Shown: positions 54,255-64,000 of the stretch, piece after piece
Numbering within the stretch: position 1 is the stretch's first letter
Layout: the number at the start of each line of letters is the position of its first letter
NCBI GenBank assembly: GCA_038131485.1
Contig: JAYPPO010000001.1
Span: 150,053 to 214,052, forward strand
DNA: 64,000 nt
Source: Alphaproteobacteria bacterium
Lineage (GTDB): Bacteria > Pseudomonadota > Alphaproteobacteria > MPNO01 > UBA830
Direction: 5' to 3'
Notes under the pieces: model-generated
Databases searched by the model: none
What the model was told of the DNA's origin: nothing
The model's input: only the letters and a program-made list of their open reading frames with translations
Translations under genes and position numbers: made by a program

Positions 54255-55576
54255 TGCCGACATTGAACGACACCCACGATCCGGCCCTGGAGAGCTGGGT
54301 CGAAGGGGCCGATGCGCACAGCGCGGATTTTCCGGTCCAGAACCTGCCTTTCGGCGTGTTCGTCCATCCCGACACCGGCGCGCCGACGGTCGGCGTTGCC
54401 ATCGGAGGCTCGATCCTCGACGTCTCGGCCGCCTATGCGAAGGGCTTGATAGGTGGCGCTGCGGACGATGCGGCGCAGGCTTGCGGCGGGCCGACGTTGA
54501 ACGCGCTGATGTCGCTCGGTGGGCAACACTGGTCGGCGCTGCGGGCGGCCCTCTCGCTGTTGCTGCGGGCTGATACCGAGGCCGGCGAGCAGGCCCAAGA
54601 AGTTGCGGGAGAAATTCTCGTCCCGATGGCCGGCACTAAGCTGCTGCTGCCGGTCCAGATCGGCGACTACACGGATTTCTACGCCTCGATCTTCCACGCG
54701 ACCAACGTCGGCAAGATGCTGCGGCCGGATAATCCTCTGATGCCGAACTACAAGCACATTCCGATTGCCTATCACGGTCGTGCGTCGTCAATCGTCGTCA
54801 GCGGCGAACCGTGCAAGCGCCCTGTGGGCCAGTTAAAGGCACCCGATGCCGAAGCGCCGTCCTTCGGCGCGTCAATGGCATTCGACTACGAGACCGAGAT
54901 TGCTTTCTATGTTGGGCCCGGCAACCCGCTCGGCCAGCCCGTGGCGTTAGAAGAGGCGGAGGACCACATCTTCGGGCTCTGTATCCTCAACGACTGGTCG
55001 GCACGCGACATCCAGGCGTGGGAATACCAGCCGCTCGGCCCGTTCCTTGCCAAGAGCTTCGCCTCGCACCTCTCGCCCTGGGTAGTGACGATGGAGGCCC
55101 TTGCGCCGTTCCGCTGTGGTGCCTACCGCCGCCCGGAGGGCGATCCGTCACCGCTGCCTTACCTGACGTCTGCCGCCAACGAGTCAGAAGGTGGATTCGA
55201 CGTTCAAATCGAGGTCTCCATCGCGTCCGCGAAGATGCGCGCCGAGGGGATGGATCCCGAGGTCCTCGCGGTCACCAATATGCAGCATCTCTACTGGACT
55301 ATCTTCCAGATGCTAACTCACCACACGTCCAACGGTTGCAACCTGCGCCCCGGAGACATGATGGGGACGGGTACTATTTCCGGGCCCGACGAGGACTCGC
55401 TCGGCTCGATTCTCGAGATCACCAAACGCGGCACGAGTCCTGTGAAGCTGCCGACCGGCGAGGAACGAAAGTTCCTCGGCGACGGCGACGAGCTGACCAT
55501 GCGCGCCTGGTGCGAGAAGGACGGCGCACGGGCCATCGGCTTCGGCGCTTGCAGCGCCGTGATCGAGCCCGCCTGA
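54254..55576 (+). CDS. fahA: Fumarylacetoacetase
   Basis: The start overlaps the hmgA stop (TAATG). SWV...DFPVQNLPFGVF N-terminal domain plus FAH core; 440 aa. Confidence 0.9.
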   Translation: MPTLNDTHDPALESWVEGADAHSADFPVQNLPFGVFVHPDTGAPTVGVAIGGSILDVSAAYAKGLIGGAADDAAQACGGPTLNALMSLGGQHWSALRAALSLLLRADTEAGEQAQEVAGEILVPMAGTKLLLPVQIGDYTDFYASIFHATNVGKMLRPDNPLMPNYKHIPIAYHGRASSIVVSGEPCKRPVGQLKAPDAEAPSFGASMAFDYETEIAFYVGPGNPLGQPVALEEAEDHIFGLCILNDWSARDIQAWEYQPLGPFLAKSFASHLSPWVVTMEALAPFRCGAYRRPEGDPSPLPYLTSAANESEGGFDVQIEVSIASAKMRAEGMDPEVLAVTNMQHLYWTIFQMLTHHTSNGCNLRPGDMMGTGTISGPDEDSLGSILEITKRGTSPVKLPTGEERKFLGDGDELTMRAWCEKDGARAIGFGACSAVIEPA

Positions 55577-55599
55577 CGGGCGGCCTCCGGTTCCAATCC

Positions 55600-57924
55600 A
55601 TGGCGGACATCGTCGGCGCCCGTGTCAAAAGGATCGAGGATCCCGACCTGCTGCGCGGGCGCGGCGTGTTCGTCGACGACATCCACCTCGCCGCCGGGCT
55701 CCATGCCGCGTTCGTCCGTAGCCCGCATCCGCACGCCGACATCCACGGAATCGATGCAGCTGCAGCCCGCGCGGCGCTGGGCGTGCATGCCGTTTTCACG
55801 CTCGACGATTTCCGGCCTCATCTGACCGGTCCGCGCCTGCCGCTGGAATTTCCCAATAAAGCTCTATCGGACAAAGTGACGCCCTATCTGCTGGCGTCAT
55901 CCGAGGTGTGTTATGTCGGCGAGCCGGTTGCGATGGTAATTGCTGACAGCCGCTATCTTGCGGAGGACGCAGCGATGCTGGTCGAGGTTGACTACGACCC
56001 GCTGCCGTCGGTGGCGGGATGTGCGGCGACCTACGCTGCGGGTTCACCGGCTGTTCATTCGGGGGACACGGATAACATCCTCGCCGAGATCGAGCAGGCC
56101 TATGGTGACGTGGAGGCGGCCTTCGCCGCCGCGCATTCGGTCTATTCAGACCGCTTTCTGCAGCATCGCGGCGGCGCGCACCCGATCGAGGGACGTGGCG
56201 CAGTTGCACGCTACGATGCCATGGATGACCGACTGACGGTTTGGTCGTCGACCCAAATGTCGCATGAGGTCCGCTCCGCGGTCGTTCAGATGTTAAATAT
56301 AGACGAGGGCCGCATCCGCGTCGTTGCACCCGAGGTCGGCGGAGGGTTTGGCTCCAAATACATCGCCTATGCTGAGGAGGTCGCCGTCGCGCTTGCCGCG
56401 AAACTGCTCGACAGACCGGTGAAATGGGTCGAAGACCGGCGCGAACACTTCATTGCCGCCATTCAGGAGCGAGAACAGGACTGGCGAATGGAGATCGCCG
56501 TCGATGCCGACGGCCATGTGTTGGGCGTTCGAGGCGAGATGATCCACGATCAGGGCGCCTACACGCCGCAGGGCATCAACATGCCCTACAACGCATCTAC
56601 TGCCGTGCCCGGTCCCTATGTGGTACCGGCCTATGCAATCAAGGTGCACGTGGTGGAAACCAACGCGGTCCCGACGGCACCAGTGAGGGGCGCAGGCTAC
56701 CCAGAAGGCAACTACGCGATGGAGCGGCTACTTGACAGGGCTGCACAGGGGCTAGGCATGGACCGTGCCGAGATTCGCCGGCGCAACCTGATCCCGGCGG
56801 ACGAGATGCCCTATACGACGCCCCTGCTGACGCGCGCTGGCACGCCGGTCGAGGCCGACAGCGGCGATTTCCCTGAATGCCAACGCATAGCGATGGACGC
56901 TGTGGACTACGCCGGGTTCCCGGCGCGACAAGCGGCGGCTCGGGCTGAGGGCCGCTATATTGGCATCGGTGTTGCCAACAGCCTGAAGGGAACCGGGCGA
57001 GGGCCGTTCGAATCGGGTTCTGTCCGGATCGAGCGCTCCGGCAAGGTTCGCGTGTTTACTGGCGCGCTTGCCATGGGGCAGGGGCTCAAGACGATGCTGG
57101 CGCAGGTGACAGCGGAACAGCTTGGCGTGGGTCTCGACGAGATCGAGGTCGTCGCAGGCGATACCGGCACCATCGCGCTCGGTCTTGGCGGTTTTGCGAG
57201 CCGCCAAACGGTGACGGCCGGCTCGTCCGTACACTATGCTGCATCCGAAGTCCGAACGAAGGTGCTCAAGCTCGCCGCGCACCTGATGGAAGCGGCTGAA
57301 GAAGATCTTGAAATCGTGGACGGCATGATCCGGGTCCGCGGCGCTGACGTGACGATCCCTATGAAGGCCGTTGCCGAGGCGGCATCCGGCGCGCCGGGCT
57401 ACTCGATGCCAGAGGGAATAGATCCGGGGCTGGAAGCGAACGTTAATTTCAAGCCACCGGCGCTGACTTATTCGAACGGCACGCATGTGGTCGAGGCGGA
57501 GGTCGATATTGGGACCGGCTCGGTCGCCTTTCTGCGTTACGTTGTCGTGAGCGACTGCGGCACGCTGATCAACCCGATGATCGTCGACGGCCAAATCGCC
57601 GGCGGAGTCGCACACGGCATCGGTAATGCTTTGTTCGAATGGATGGGCTATGATGAGCGAGGCCAGCCGCTGACCACGAATTTCGGCGAATATCTGATCC
57701 CCAGTGCGCCGGAAATCCCTGATTTCGAGCTGCACTACATGCAGTCGCCGACGCCCTTGAACCCGCTGGGCGTGAAAGGCGTGGGCGAAACAGGCACCGT
57801 GCCGGCCGCTGCCGCGGTGGTCGCCGCGGTTGAGGACGCGCTGTCGCCGTTTGGTGCGAGGATTTCTGATTACCCGGTCAGTCCGGCGAAGATCGTGGAA
57901 ATCGTCCAGAGCGCTCTTGTCTGA
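55600..57924 (+). CDS. Xanthine dehydrogenase/CoxL-family molybdopterin-binding subunit (no small or medium subunit genes adjacent)
   Basis: ATG 55600 (MADIVGARVKRIEDPDLLRGRG, the typical family N-terminus). The track's 54811 start is an alternate-frame run through fahA. 774 aa. Confidence 0.85.
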   Translation: MADIVGARVKRIEDPDLLRGRGVFVDDIHLAAGLHAAFVRSPHPHADIHGIDAAAARAALGVHAVFTLDDFRPHLTGPRLPLEFPNKALSDKVTPYLLASSEVCYVGEPVAMVIADSRYLAEDAAMLVEVDYDPLPSVAGCAATYAAGSPAVHSGDTDNILAEIEQAYGDVEAAFAAAHSVYSDRFLQHRGGAHPIEGRGAVARYDAMDDRLTVWSSTQMSHEVRSAVVQMLNIDEGRIRVVAPEVGGGFGSKYIAYAEEVAVALAAKLLDRPVKWVEDRREHFIAAIQEREQDWRMEIAVDADGHVLGVRGEMIHDQGAYTPQGINMPYNASTAVPGPYVVPAYAIKVHVVETNAVPTAPVRGAGYPEGNYAMERLLDRAAQGLGMDRAEIRRRNLIPADEMPYTTPLLTRAGTPVEADSGDFPECQRIAMDAVDYAGFPARQAAARAEGRYIGIGVANSLKGTGRGPFESGSVRIERSGKVRVFTGALAMGQGLKTMLAQVTAEQLGVGLDEIEVVAGDTGTIALGLGGFASRQTVTAGSSVHYAASEVRTKVLKLAAHLMEAAEEDLEIVDGMIRVRGADVTIPMKAVAEAASGAPGYSMPEGIDPGLEANVNFKPPALTYSNGTHVVEAEVDIGTGSVAFLRYVVVSDCGTLINPMIVDGQIAGGVAHGIGNALFEWMGYDERGQPLTTNFGEYLIPSAPEIPDFELHYMQSPTPLNPLGVKGVGETGTVPAAAAVVAAVEDALSPFGARISDYPVSPAKIVEIVQSALV

Positions 57925-62362: not shown

Positions 62363-63517
62363 CTAGGTCTCGCCCCACACGTCCGTGGCAACGTCAACGA
62401 TCCGCGCGAGCTTGGTTTCCTCATCGGCCTCCGACAGTGGATTCCCCTTCACCGAGCTGGCGAAGCCGCACTGGGTTGTGAGGCCGAGGCGTTCAAGGGG
62501 CGCGTGTCTCGCCGCCTCGTCGATGCGGCGCTTGATGAAGTCAGCGTCTTCCAGCACCGGCGTCTTGGTCGAAACGATACCGAGTAGCGCAACCTTTCCC
62601 TCGGGCACGAGGCGCAGCGGCTCGAACGAGCCGGCGCGCTCGGTGTCGTATTCGAGGTGATAGCAGTCGACGTCGATGGCGTTGAACAGCACGTCGGCGA
62701 CTAGGTCGTACCCGCCTTCCGCCGCCCAGAACCCCTCGCGATTGCCGCGGCACTGGTGCATGCCGACTGTAACGCCTTCGGGCAGCGCATTGAGCACGTC
62801 GTTGATGCGTTTCGCGTACTCGGCGAGGAGCGCGTTGGCGTTCGTTCCCCAGCCCGCAAATACGGGCGCGTAGTCCGGGTCGCAAAGGAACGGCAGCGCC
62901 ACGTCGTCGAGTTGGATATGGGTACAGCCCGCGTCGGCCAGCGCCTTGAGCTCTGCCCGGTAGGCCGCGGTGAGGTCCGTCCAGAACGCTTCCTCGTCGC
63001 CAGCGTAGGGTGTGCTCGCCAGCGCTCCCGGCCCGCCCATAAAGGAATGGACGACCGGCGGAGCGGGCAGGGTGACCTTGCCGACGGCGTCTCCAGAGTT
63101 CTCGTTCAGGAATTTGAAGGCGTCTACGATCGGGCTCTCGCGCCATGAAATCCTGCCGTCGACGAAGACGGTCGAGAACGCCTGCTGGAAGCCCTTCTCA
63201 TTCTTCCAGCCGAACGGTGAAGAAGTGTCTTGTCGGTTTGCCGAGAACCCATCCCAGTTCATGATCAGCTCTAGCCACCAGCTGCGCCGCCGCATCTCGC
63301 CGTCGGTAGCGCCCTTGAGCCCGACGCGCGCCTGCATGGCGATCGCCTCGCGGATGCAGTCGTCCTCCACCGCCGCGAGATTTATGTCGCCGTGTGGGCC
63401 GAGATTGCTCTCCGCCGTGTCCTCACCTAGCCGAGCGACCCGCGCGTCTTTTAGCCGCTGGGGACGAAGCAGGCTTCCGACATGATCGGCGCGAAACGGA
63501 GGCTTGGTGCCACGCAT
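62363..63517 (-). CDS. Cobalamin-independent methionine synthase II (MetE C-terminal-like) family protein, intact paralog
   Basis: Start at ATG 63517 (MRGTKPPFRADHVGSLLRP). HQCRGN, TKTPVLED and QCGFAS zinc-site blocks are in one frame; 384 aa. Confidence 0.8.
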   Translation of the reverse strand: MRGTKPPFRADHVGSLLRPQRLKDARVARLGEDTAESNLGPHGDINLAAVEDDCIREAIAMQARVGLKGATDGEMRRRSWWLELIMNWDGFSANRQDTSSPFGWKNEKGFQQAFSTVFVDGRISWRESPIVDAFKFLNENSGDAVGKVTLPAPPVVHSFMGGPGALASTPYAGDEEAFWTDLTAAYRAELKALADAGCTHIQLDDVALPFLCDPDYAPVFAGWGTNANALLAEYAKRINDVLNALPEGVTVGMHQCRGNREGFWAAEGGYDLVADVLFNAIDVDCYHLEYDTERAGSFEPLRLVPEGKVALLGIVSTKTPVLEDADFIKRRIDEAARHAPLERLGLTTQCGFASSVKGNPLSEADEETKLARIVDVATDVWGET

Positions 63518-63616
63518 AAGACAATCTTCTCTATTTTGTTGGTTACTATTGAGGCCAAACACAATAGCGCCTTCTACGGCTTGCGTGTAGGCTAAGACGA
63601 CATTGGTCTTCAGCAC

Positions 63617-63685
63617 GCGGGCGTGGTGAAATTGGTAGACACAAGGGACTTAAAATCCCTCGGCTTAGGCCTTGCCGGTTCGAGT
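63617..63685 (+). tRNA. tRNA-Leu (anticodon UAA), 3'-truncated: ends in the T-loop, with the 3' T-stem and acceptor strand missing
   Basis: GCGGGCG-TG-GTG-AAATTGGTAGA-CAC-A-AGGGA-CTTAAAA-TCCCT-variable arm-GCCGG-TTCGAGT is then followed by GATAGGCC instead of CCGGC+CGCCCGC. No CGCCCGC occurs downstream in the window. Confidence 0.75.
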
Positions 63686-64000
63686 GATAGGCCTTCGATA
63701 GATTCGAAATATCGTATAAAAAACAATATATTAAAAAAATACCCAGTTTTTTTCTATCCTCTATACTGATCGGTCAGAAGGCTATTTTTTTTCCGGTGAT
63801 ACTTCTGTGATACTTTTTTCGTGGGCATATCTGAAATTTAGCAAGTCTGGGCGATGCTTCTGCAATTGCGGTGATTCGGTTTGAGCAGGTTCTGGTCTTT
63901 TTTTTAGATTAAGATACGAAATAAGCAGTAAAACATACAAATTTATAGGTTCATTCATCATATTTGATGATAAGCCCCGCATTTTGGCTATATTTTTAAC
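63686..64000. mobile_element. Edge of AT-rich, compositionally foreign DNA (putative integrated element / genomic island) abutting the broken tRNA-Leu
   Basis: The composition switches abruptly from GC-rich to AT-rich (poly-A/T runs, about one third GC by eye) exactly at the tRNA break. Only 315 bp are visible and no integrase is seen. Confidence 0.5.

Follow-up and report, generated by a model that had tools for sequence, protein, structure and literature searches.

We propose that the truncated tRNA-Leu(UAA) gene at the right end of the 64,000-nucleotide stretch of DNA analyzed here (the window) is the left attachment site (attL) of a 9.57-kb integrated pipolin, an island with a gene for a piPolB-type DNA polymerase, which sits in the only tRNA-Leu(UAA) gene detected in the genome, and we give this reading a probability of about 0.88. 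The window covers C1:150053-214052, where C1 (JAYPPO010000001.1) is a 237-kb contig of the host genome G000, an alphaproteobacterial metagenome-assembled genome (MAG) of 2.7 Mb in 24 contigs with a completeness of 78%. Features beyond the window are given in window-equivalent coordinates, that is, the C1 position minus 150052.

By sequence inspection, window 63617-63685 corresponds to nt 1-69 of a class II tRNA-Leu with anticodon UAA, reading GCGGGCG-TG-GTGA...ACAC-A-AGGGA-CTTAAAA-TCCCT-variable arm-GCCGG-TTCGAGT and spanning the acceptor 5′ strand, D arm, anticodon arm, variable arm, 5′ T stem, and 7-nt T loop. The break falls directly after the seventh T-loop nucleotide, tRNA position 69 of 85, and from 63686 on the sequence is GATAGGCCTTCGATAG... 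where CCGGCCGCCCGCACCA would be expected, remaining AT-rich up to the window end (GC 0.34 in window 63686-64000 vs 0.636 in window 1-63616 and 0.613 in the genome). A preliminary description, made from the window alone, had seen both the intact first part of the tRNA and the switch at 63686 to 315 bp of AT-rich DNA, and it was correct on both. ARAGORN called no tRNA at the fragment, and the Rfam tRNA model scored 25.7 bits, below its gathering score of 29 and only through a forced wrong 3′ pairing. An alternative fold giving a complete tRNA, which had been named beforehand as the outcome that would speak against a broken gene, was therefore rejected; neither program recovers one, and the sequence after nt 69 is unable to pair with the T stem or the acceptor stem.

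Beyond the window, the low-GC stretch runs for 9,571 bp in all (GC 0.47), of which the first 315 bp lie in the window and the remainder extends to C1:223308 (window-equivalent 73256). It ends at an intact tRNA-Leu(taa) at C1:223309-223393, scored at 59.2 bits by the Rfam tRNA model, past which GC is back at 0.62. Between the fragment and this gene, identity is 100% over nt 1-69, from position +1 to the end of the T loop, and the gene is the sole intact tRNA-Leu(UAA) detected in the assembly. The preliminary description had rightly placed the element beyond the window edge and had advised a search for another tRNA copy, which proved decisive together with its advice to extend the sequence, look for an integrase, and compare relatives, but its statement that the tRNA was not rebuilt was wrong, as a complete, high-scoring copy stands at the other end of the island, 9.57 kb downstream. 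The second junction that it had expected, a copy of the 3′ segment CCGGCCGCCCGCACCA, does not exist because the duplicated part is the 5′ 69 nt, and TTCGAGT, which it had proposed as a direct repeat in its own right, is merely the last 7 nt of the 69-bp repeat.

Comparison with a relative, also advised beforehand, uncovered the empty site in G002, a genome of the same genus. There, a MetE-like gene (87% nucleotide identity) is followed by one intact tRNA-Leu(UAA) and then by the downstream block of G000 (86-91%), with no low-GC DNA and no island, so the AT-rich DNA is not the core sequence conserved in all relatives that would have spoken against an insertion. G002 alone has one ordinary GC-rich oxidoreductase gene between the tRNA and the downstream block, a lineage difference unrelated to the element. 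The motif GCGTGTAGGCT at 63583-63593, upstream of the fragment, is also found upstream of the intact tRNA of G002, and the right, intact copy in G000 has its native 3′ trailer in common with G002. Given the G002 arrangement, the upstream flank of the left copy is the native one, as are the 3′ end and downstream flank of the right copy, and this sharing of flanks indicates that the insert split the gene. The insert supplies the 5′ 69 nt of the functional copy (or the part up to the crossover) and its whole upstream region. Synteny at the site holds within the genus only, and G002 was located via the tRNA itself; the FAD-oxidoreductase gene was tried as a synteny probe and rejected, as its 80 best loci came from other species without the tRNA and the MetE-like neighbor, and no exact-protein record was found for the FAD protein.

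The attribution of the break to an integrating element also held up, with an integrase gene and an island between the 69-bp repeats. The integrase gene, found by extending the sequence to the right as had been advised, abuts the intact tRNA, and its product has an Arm-DNA-bind_3 domain (PF13356, 5.4e-10) and a Phage_integrase domain (PF00589). Its family comprises 21 homologues, all metagenomic, and no match was obtained in PDB sequence searches, nor any exact-protein record. Of the catalytic set R-K-H-R-H/W-Y usual in tyrosine integrases of this kind, R277, K312, R383, H406, and Y419 show no variation among 11 members of the family. The "His II" position, 3 residues before R383 and read by eye against the HxxR box, is N, K, or R family-wide and never H, and since every member deviates, this appears to be a family trait rather than decay. 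The island has six RTGATAC copies, all on the + strand and within ~125 bp of its ends, in pairs 11 bp apart, two of them 110-125 bp inside the left end and four 55-100 bp upstream of the intact tRNA, an arrangement reached in 0 of 2,000 shuffles. The protein and its site together thus have what is expected of a heterobivalent (lambda/P4/SXT-type) integrase, an N-terminal arm-binding domain and arm-type repeats on both sides of the core. A promoter scan placed a sigma-70-like promoter facing the integrase gene over the right-hand arm-site cluster. When the ends are joined, they form an element attachment site (attP) of ~300 bp that runs from the P′ arm through the 69-bp tRNA core to the P arm.

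The same architecture is found in sister elements. In L095/L096 (integrase 55% and piPolB 74% identical), an intact tRNA-Leu(UAA) stands beside the integrase gene and a 5′ fragment (nt 1-47) at the far end. In L107, a 97% identical integrase module and its P′ arm run into a complete tRNA-Leu(UAA), the host flank beyond being a different one, and the sequence identifies L107 as the same element in another host; it was the one match to the attR/attP junction pattern in metagenome contigs, representing the right attachment site (attR) in that host. The attL junction pattern was absent from the JGI metagenome contigs scanned, and neither pattern occurred in the genome contigs scanned. L108 is a 5.6-kb island without a polymerase (integrase 73% identical) between two complete, identical tRNA-Leu(CAA) genes. 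From another sequencing run, L109 is a 5,623-bp contig whose ends overlap by 30 nt (k-1) and join precisely as P′ arm-tRNA-P arm, and it is the circular or tandem form of the L108 element, a small integrative element with a tRNA of its own. Arm sites are conserved in L107 and L108, with the same geometry in L108, where the arm block CC[G/T]GTGATACTTCTGTGATACTTTT is retained, and L096, with its more diverged integrase, has a GTGACA-type pair at the same positions, so that the arm sites co-vary with integrase divergence. On the - strand of G024 (L111 = G024:C111:1-6000, 251-466), a 5′ fragment of the native tRNA-Leu(UAA) that covers ~nt 1-47 and lacks one base stands 87 bp ahead of a complete, 72% identical tRNA-Leu(UAA), 250 bp before the contig ends, which may be another 5′-side insertion bringing its own whole tRNA gene. 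Among these related elements, the tRNA-derived cores always begin at +1 and measure 47, 69, or 87 nt.

The polymerase was found in only 2 of 78 genomes of the order, and the element is patchy and moves horizontally. The second copy, in G073 from another family of the order, is 91% identical in nucleotides and frame-broken (three pieces, one in-frame TGA); the element there also has the fasciclin gene, with a different, apparently fragmented integrase, which points to a recent inter-family transfer with a swap of the integration module. In L099, a more distant relative whose piPolB shares 54% identity, the integrase is Xer-like and sits at the tRNA-Pro 3′ end. The targets of G073 and L099 show the polymerase module being exchanged between integration modules, and the 5′-side mode travels with the integrase rather than with the polymerase.

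Close relatives of the polymerase (54-92% identity) occur only in metagenomes, and the next matches among the distant homologues listed by phmmer are proteins of Aeromonas, Sulfitobacter/Marimonas, Rhizobiales, and Verrucomicrobia (E 1e-84 to 1e-136), with KH-X8-KTRG present in those that were aligned. tblastn against 72,556 plasmids gave matches in Pseudosulfitobacter, Staphylococcus, and Fusobacterium only, including NC_005006.1, an 8-kb plasmid of S. epidermidis ATCC 12228 that we take, from its host strain, to be pSE-12228-03. Pseudosulfitobacter and Staphylococcus are genera with published plasmid pipolins, pSE-12228-03 among them. The invariant residues of motifs Exo I-III and Pol A, B, and C include D12, E14, Y184, D188, D296, D298, Y303, K430, N434, Y437, G438, and D502 in the alignment; the protein therefore has the Exo and Pol domains, with intact motifs and a phi29-like predicted fold, of a pPolB-like architecture, in which TPR1 and TPR2 insertions are expected. 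The extended motif KH-X8-KTRG, which defines piPolBs and stands in for the KxY of other PolBs (PMC5695915), is not literally present, with G found in place of H, R in place of K, and M in place of G; K542 (equivalent to the priming K613) and R554 (equivalent to R625) are invariant in the alignment. In the E. coli piPolB, H614A behaves normally and K613A, K623A, and R625A are defective (Redrejo-Rodriguez 2017, PMC5695915), so the residues known to matter are kept or conservatively replaced in KG-X8-RTRM. ExplorePipolin recognizes piPolB by a hidden Markov model hit with E < 1e-50, which we approximated by pairwise, profile-free searches. A module of polymerase, HNH, and zinc-ribbon genes is conserved in at least three elements and one relic. 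On these sequence grounds, the polymerase is assigned to the piPolBs, which would make the island a pipolin, and the island has the other expected parts, a recombinase gene and perfect 69-bp att-like repeats with the right copy inside tRNA-Leu(UAA). The polymerase would be expected to synthesize DNA de novo, in a primer-independent manner.

The DNA of the island and its flanks was found in four metagenome runs at ~5x as Logan k=31 contigs, and both half-junctions were confirmed there. Several results weigh against an integrated pipolin as we describe it. The host is a MAG with more than a fifth of its genome missing, and the Logan contigs break inside the 69-bp repeat, so that an integrated element and an empty site plus a circle are indistinguishable in them. 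Neither excision joints nor attB or attP for the G000 copy were found in these contigs (k=31, ~5x), and no excisionase was recognized in the island. The crossover could not be mapped by tRNA variants in G000, L107, G002, and ten relatives, the differences being explained by ~3% divergence between elements, and the promoter scan found no consensus site for the rebuilt tRNA on its strand. PADLOC detected on the island no defense system of the sort that pipolins typically carry, only a weak homing-endonuclease match to the HNH protein. Finally, the priming motif of the polymerase's clade, KG-X8-RTRM (P0001, P0003, P0005; RVRM in P0014), is non-canonical.

The incompleteness of the MAG and the Logan contigs that stop within the repeat would also suit an assembly artifact, in which a free circular pipolin and an uninterrupted chromosomal tRNA were joined by the assembler through the shared 69 bp. 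The circle assembled for a sister island (L109) and an island depth close to that of the flanks, compatible with a single-copy episome, fit this explanation too, but we consider it improbable: it needs two coordinated mis-joins that produce the exact topology of site-specific integration on a 237-kb contig, and independent sister assemblies cross whole repeats into host DNA, at both junctions in L095/L096 and in L108 and, in L107, from the P′ arm through the complete tRNA into the host flank. Even in that case, the tRNA fragment would remain the attP/attL core of this pipolin.

It is very improbable, in our view, that the island is an ordinary integrase-borne island or satellite in which a protein-primed (phi29/Bam35-type) or inactive PolB is cargo. 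Pfam assigns only the generic PF03175, the priming motif is altered, and the same integrase family also occurs on the polymerase-free L108. The AlphaFold model of the polymerase (pLDDT 83.6) has phi29 DNA polymerase, a pPolB, as its best match and nearest solved fold (E 6e-15, TM 0.60-0.62 normalized to phi29), spanning the whole length and ranking above archaeal and eukaryotic PolBs; solved structures gave no match by sequence search. Against this stands a similarity of ~1e-100 to KTRG-bearing piPolBs, while the sole hits in a search of 50,697 phages were protein-primed PolBs of the Bam35/GIL16 type, with E ~2e-4 and 20% of the polymerase covered. Within the motif, neither the priming lysine nor the arginine varies, every catalytic residue of Exo and Pol is intact, the element has no terminal-protein gene, terminal inverted repeats, or Cas1, and the polymerase-HNH-zinc-ribbon module is conserved across the elements named above. 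A decayed tRNA pseudogene from local duplication, unrelated to the low-GC DNA, could leave a partial tRNA beside AT-rich DNA after duplication and deletion, but its probability is negligible: the fragment and the copy at the far end of the island are 100% identical over precisely nt 1-69, an integrase is encoded with arm sites near each end, a relative has the site unoccupied, and four sister elements share the architecture.

Returning to an integrated pipolin, we infer the following recombination chemistry, and the G000 copy may be mobile at present. The excised element would be a circle of ~9.64 kb, and the integrase, through its arm-binding, core-binding, and catalytic domains, would recombine the 69-bp attP core with the chromosomal tRNA gene. 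The attL product would consist of the native promoter and tRNA nt 1-69, truncated and non-functional, and the attR product of element DNA and a complete tRNA whose 5′ part and upstream (promoter) region are element-derived. The crossover would lie within tRNA nt 1-47, and we lean toward the anticodon loop, which, flanked by a symmetric stem, is a classical sublocation (Islander 2015, PMC4383910). The core part 5′ of the crossover would enter the functional gene, and the part 3′ of it would end up in the displaced fragment and be dispensable. Most simply read, integrases of this family recombine a tRNA-Leu copy on the element with its counterpart in the host, leaving the 3′ side of the element's copy free for trimming. 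The core lengths of 47, 69, or 87 nt among the sisters suggest that the core began as a complete tRNA-Leu gene on the element and is undergoing trimming at its dispensable 3′ side. The rebuilt tRNA would be transcribed from element DNA, in which G000, L107, and L108 have an A/T-rich box 10-20 nt before +1 and L096 has a differently spaced A/T-rich stretch. The presumed native promoter, window 63518-63616, would now drive only the truncated fragment, as a tRNA-like RNA reading into the P arm. The piPolB-type polymerase, with the neighboring HNH and zinc-ribbon genes, would replicate the excised circle, presumably without a primer.

Both copies of the 69-bp repeat (window 63617-63685 and C1:223309-223377) have an A at tRNA position 51, which occurs in none of the 12 related tRNA-Leu(UAA) genes compared and is absent from L107 too. 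The match of the element core to this private allele of the host could reflect a long stay in the host, gene conversion of one repeat by the other, or an element that arose in this species.

The tRNA-Leu gene targeted by enterobacterial pipolins is leuZ, likewise a UAA isoacceptor. It lies between pgsA and yecA (PMC11551731). Like the G000 element, these pipolins (E. coli 3-373-03_S1_C2; PMC5695915, PMC7385651, PMC11551731) have att-like direct repeats overlapping tRNA-Leu, a piPolB-group polymerase with a P4/SXT-type arm-binding tyrosine integrase beside the tRNA, modular and variable cargo, and a patchy distribution. They integrate at the tRNA 3′ side, whereas the G000 element integrates from the 5′ side and supplies the tRNA upstream region; in the 2024 survey, 3′-side integration accounted for 99.8% of pipolins and 5′-side integration for ~0.2% of delimited elements (PMC11551731). 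The G000 element is also smaller, 9.6 kb against a mode of ~20 kb, and lacks the second IntP2-type integrase/excisionase pair, DUF2787, WYL, and any recognized defense system, and its polymerase is ~33% identical to gammaproteobacterial (Aeromonas) piPolBs, with KG-X8-RTRM in place of KH-X8-KTRG.

Alphaproteobacterial pipolins (PMC11551731) share the host class, and the piPolB clusters with proteobacterial homologues. Those surveyed use mainly large serine recombinases at yifB or IntP2-/IntTn916-type tyrosine recombinases (PMC11551731), whereas the G000 lineage has an Arm-DNA-bind_3 (PF13356) integrase of a metagenome-only family that uses tRNA-Leu from the 5′ side. Target-changing exchange of integrases has been described for pipolins (PMC11551731) and is seen here in G073 (tRNA-Glu) and L099 (tRNA-Pro). 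With phi29/Bam35 phages, casposons, and polintons, the polymerase has the PolB fold and the 3′-5′ exonuclease domain in common, phi29 being the best structural match, but sequence similarity to these protein-primed PolB elements is marginal, and the G000 element lacks a terminal protein, terminal inverted repeats, Cas1, and capsid genes and integrates via a tyrosine recombinase and a tRNA att site.

Islander accepts an island in a tRNA gene (tDNA) when an intact tDNA and a cognate end fragment lie in the same orientation, a 5′ fragment being upstream, with an internal integrase, a length of 2-200 kb, and a fragment that does not overlap a conserved domain of a coding sequence. Here, the end fragment is nt 1-69, on the same strand and upstream of the intact gene, with the integrase inside and a length of 9,571 bp. 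Such 5′-fragment islands make up 159 of 3,919 Islander islands, 4% (Hudson, Lau and Williams 2015, PMC4383910), and the configuration is the same in every accepted criterion, with no difference in principle; the sister-element cores of 47, 69, or 87 nt are what is added here. The preliminary description had offered a displaced or inactivated copy or, alternatively, an atypical insertion; the displaced copy stands, and the insertion belongs to this minority "5′ fragment" configuration of tRNA-gene islands rather than being atypical. The element is thus both a pipolin and a tDNA island of the displaced-5′-fragment minority class, two kinds already known. It is possible, though we hold it rather doubtful, that this is the first described member of a marine alphaproteobacterial pipolin lineage with a re-modelled priming motif (KG-X8-RTRM) and an integration module derived from an element-borne tRNA-Leu gene, which one sister island would still have in full and which would be cut down to 69 nt here and to 47 nt in another sister.

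Table 1. Features of the window, of the rest of the island (window-equivalent, w.e.), and of two related elements.
Feature	Coordinates	Strand	Basis or remarks
MetE-like gene flanking the fragment	window ~62363-63517	-	87% nucleotide identity to G002 counterpart
Native upstream (presumed promoter) region of the original tRNA-Leu(UAA)	63518..63616	+	GC-rich; motif GCGTGTAGGCT in common with G002
attL core, displaced 5′ fragment (nt 1-69) of tRNA-Leu(UAA)	63617..63685	+	100% identity to intact copy
Left end (P arm) of the integrated pipolin	63686..64000	.	Low GC; segment absent at the G002 syntenic site
Predicted arm-type site GTGATAC, P arm copy 1	63796..63802	+
Predicted arm-type site GTGATAC, P arm copy 2	63807..63813	+
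Four-cysteine zinc-ribbon protein, 88 aa	w.e. 64225-64491	-	83% amino acid identity in the C2 relic
Secreted fasciclin-domain protein	w.e. 64848-65353	-	PF02469, 2.9e-37
LOV-like PAS protein without photoactive cysteine, 131 aa	w.e. 65586-65981	+	Domain search, motif inspection
piPolB-type polymerase, 826 aa	w.e. 66305-68785	-	PF03175, homology, fold
HNH endonuclease, 136 aa	w.e. 68861-69271	+	Domain search
Secreted protein, no family assigned, 446 aa	w.e. 69522-70862	+
Lipoprotein, 153 aa	w.e. 71086-71547	-
Tyrosine integrase, 463 aa	w.e. 71724-73115	-	PF13356 + PF00589
P′ arm, four RTGATAC sites (73156, 73167, 73185, 73196), promoter-like site facing the integrase gene	w.e. 73116-73256
attR, rebuilt intact tRNA-Leu(UAA)	w.e. 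73257-73341	+	Rfam 59.2 bits
L108 island	L108 9773-15482		Outer-membrane protein (OMP) beta-barrel gene and two unassigned genes beside the integrase
G073 element	L106 7853-13831 (L106 = G073:C2:131001-151000)		5,952 bp; 27-nt repeat of tRNA-Glu(CUC) 3′ end

Other observations concern the remaining genes and relics (Table 1). For the PAS protein, the nearest match is to short blue-light sensors of the LOV/YtvA type (NCBIfam 3.7e-21, well under the cut-off), and a role as LOV photoreceptor was rejected on finding a proline in place of the flavin-binding cysteine (GKTPRILQG), so it is probably non-photoactive; its gene is absent from the G073 copy of the element. The C2 relic, G073, L095, and variant metagenome contigs from 2 runs (X2 and X5) become homologous to the island at window-equivalent 64043 or within 2 bp of it, and this position marks the boundary between an integrase-specific P arm (~360 bp) and a conserved polymerase-side module. 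The C2 relic is a decayed second pipolin in G000, at C2 ~54,300-57,000 (~2.7 kb, 35-47% GC), adjoining tRNA-Arg(CCG) at C2:54191-54267. Of its piPolB only the N- and C-terminal ends are left (83-87% amino acid identity), alongside the beginning of the HNH gene and a zinc-ribbon module (85% nucleotide identity), and neither an integrase nor a tRNA-Arg repeat was found in it. In G003 (L112, G003:C1:3985746-3986080), pieces resembling tRNA-Leu(UAA) nt 1-35 and 54-85 lie ~270 bp apart, with no tRNA or group I intron called there by ARAGORN or at the Rfam gathering threshold. The MetE-like (Meth_synt_2) gene, which has several paralogues in the host genome, was delimited mechanically as an open reading frame at window 62363-63616 (-) with a GTG start, reaching the base before the tRNA fragment. 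Since its similarity to the G002 orthologue starts only at residue 18, the true start probably lies ~50-100 nt further in.

An apparent anomaly, a tRNA left unrebuilt, thus becomes a regular, mechanistically coherent case, and pipolins are extended to an uncultured marine/estuarine alphaproteobacterial group, with a rare integrase type and tRNA side. Island finders that seek only 3′ tRNA fragments miss such elements, which matters for annotation. The core series of 87, 69, and 47 nt gives a concrete picture of an attP core evolving from a complete element-borne tRNA gene. The KG-X8-RTRM clade represents natural mutants of the motif thought to underlie primer-independent synthesis, with relevance to DNA amplification methods, and if the rather doubtful reading of a new lineage is true, the change may alter how, or whether, synthesis starts without a primer. 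On that reading, the integration module would also capture the sole tRNA-Leu(UAA) gene of the host in its promoter and 5′ part, and transcription of the UUA-reading tRNA would depend on element DNA, which could stabilize the element or couple tRNA supply to its state.

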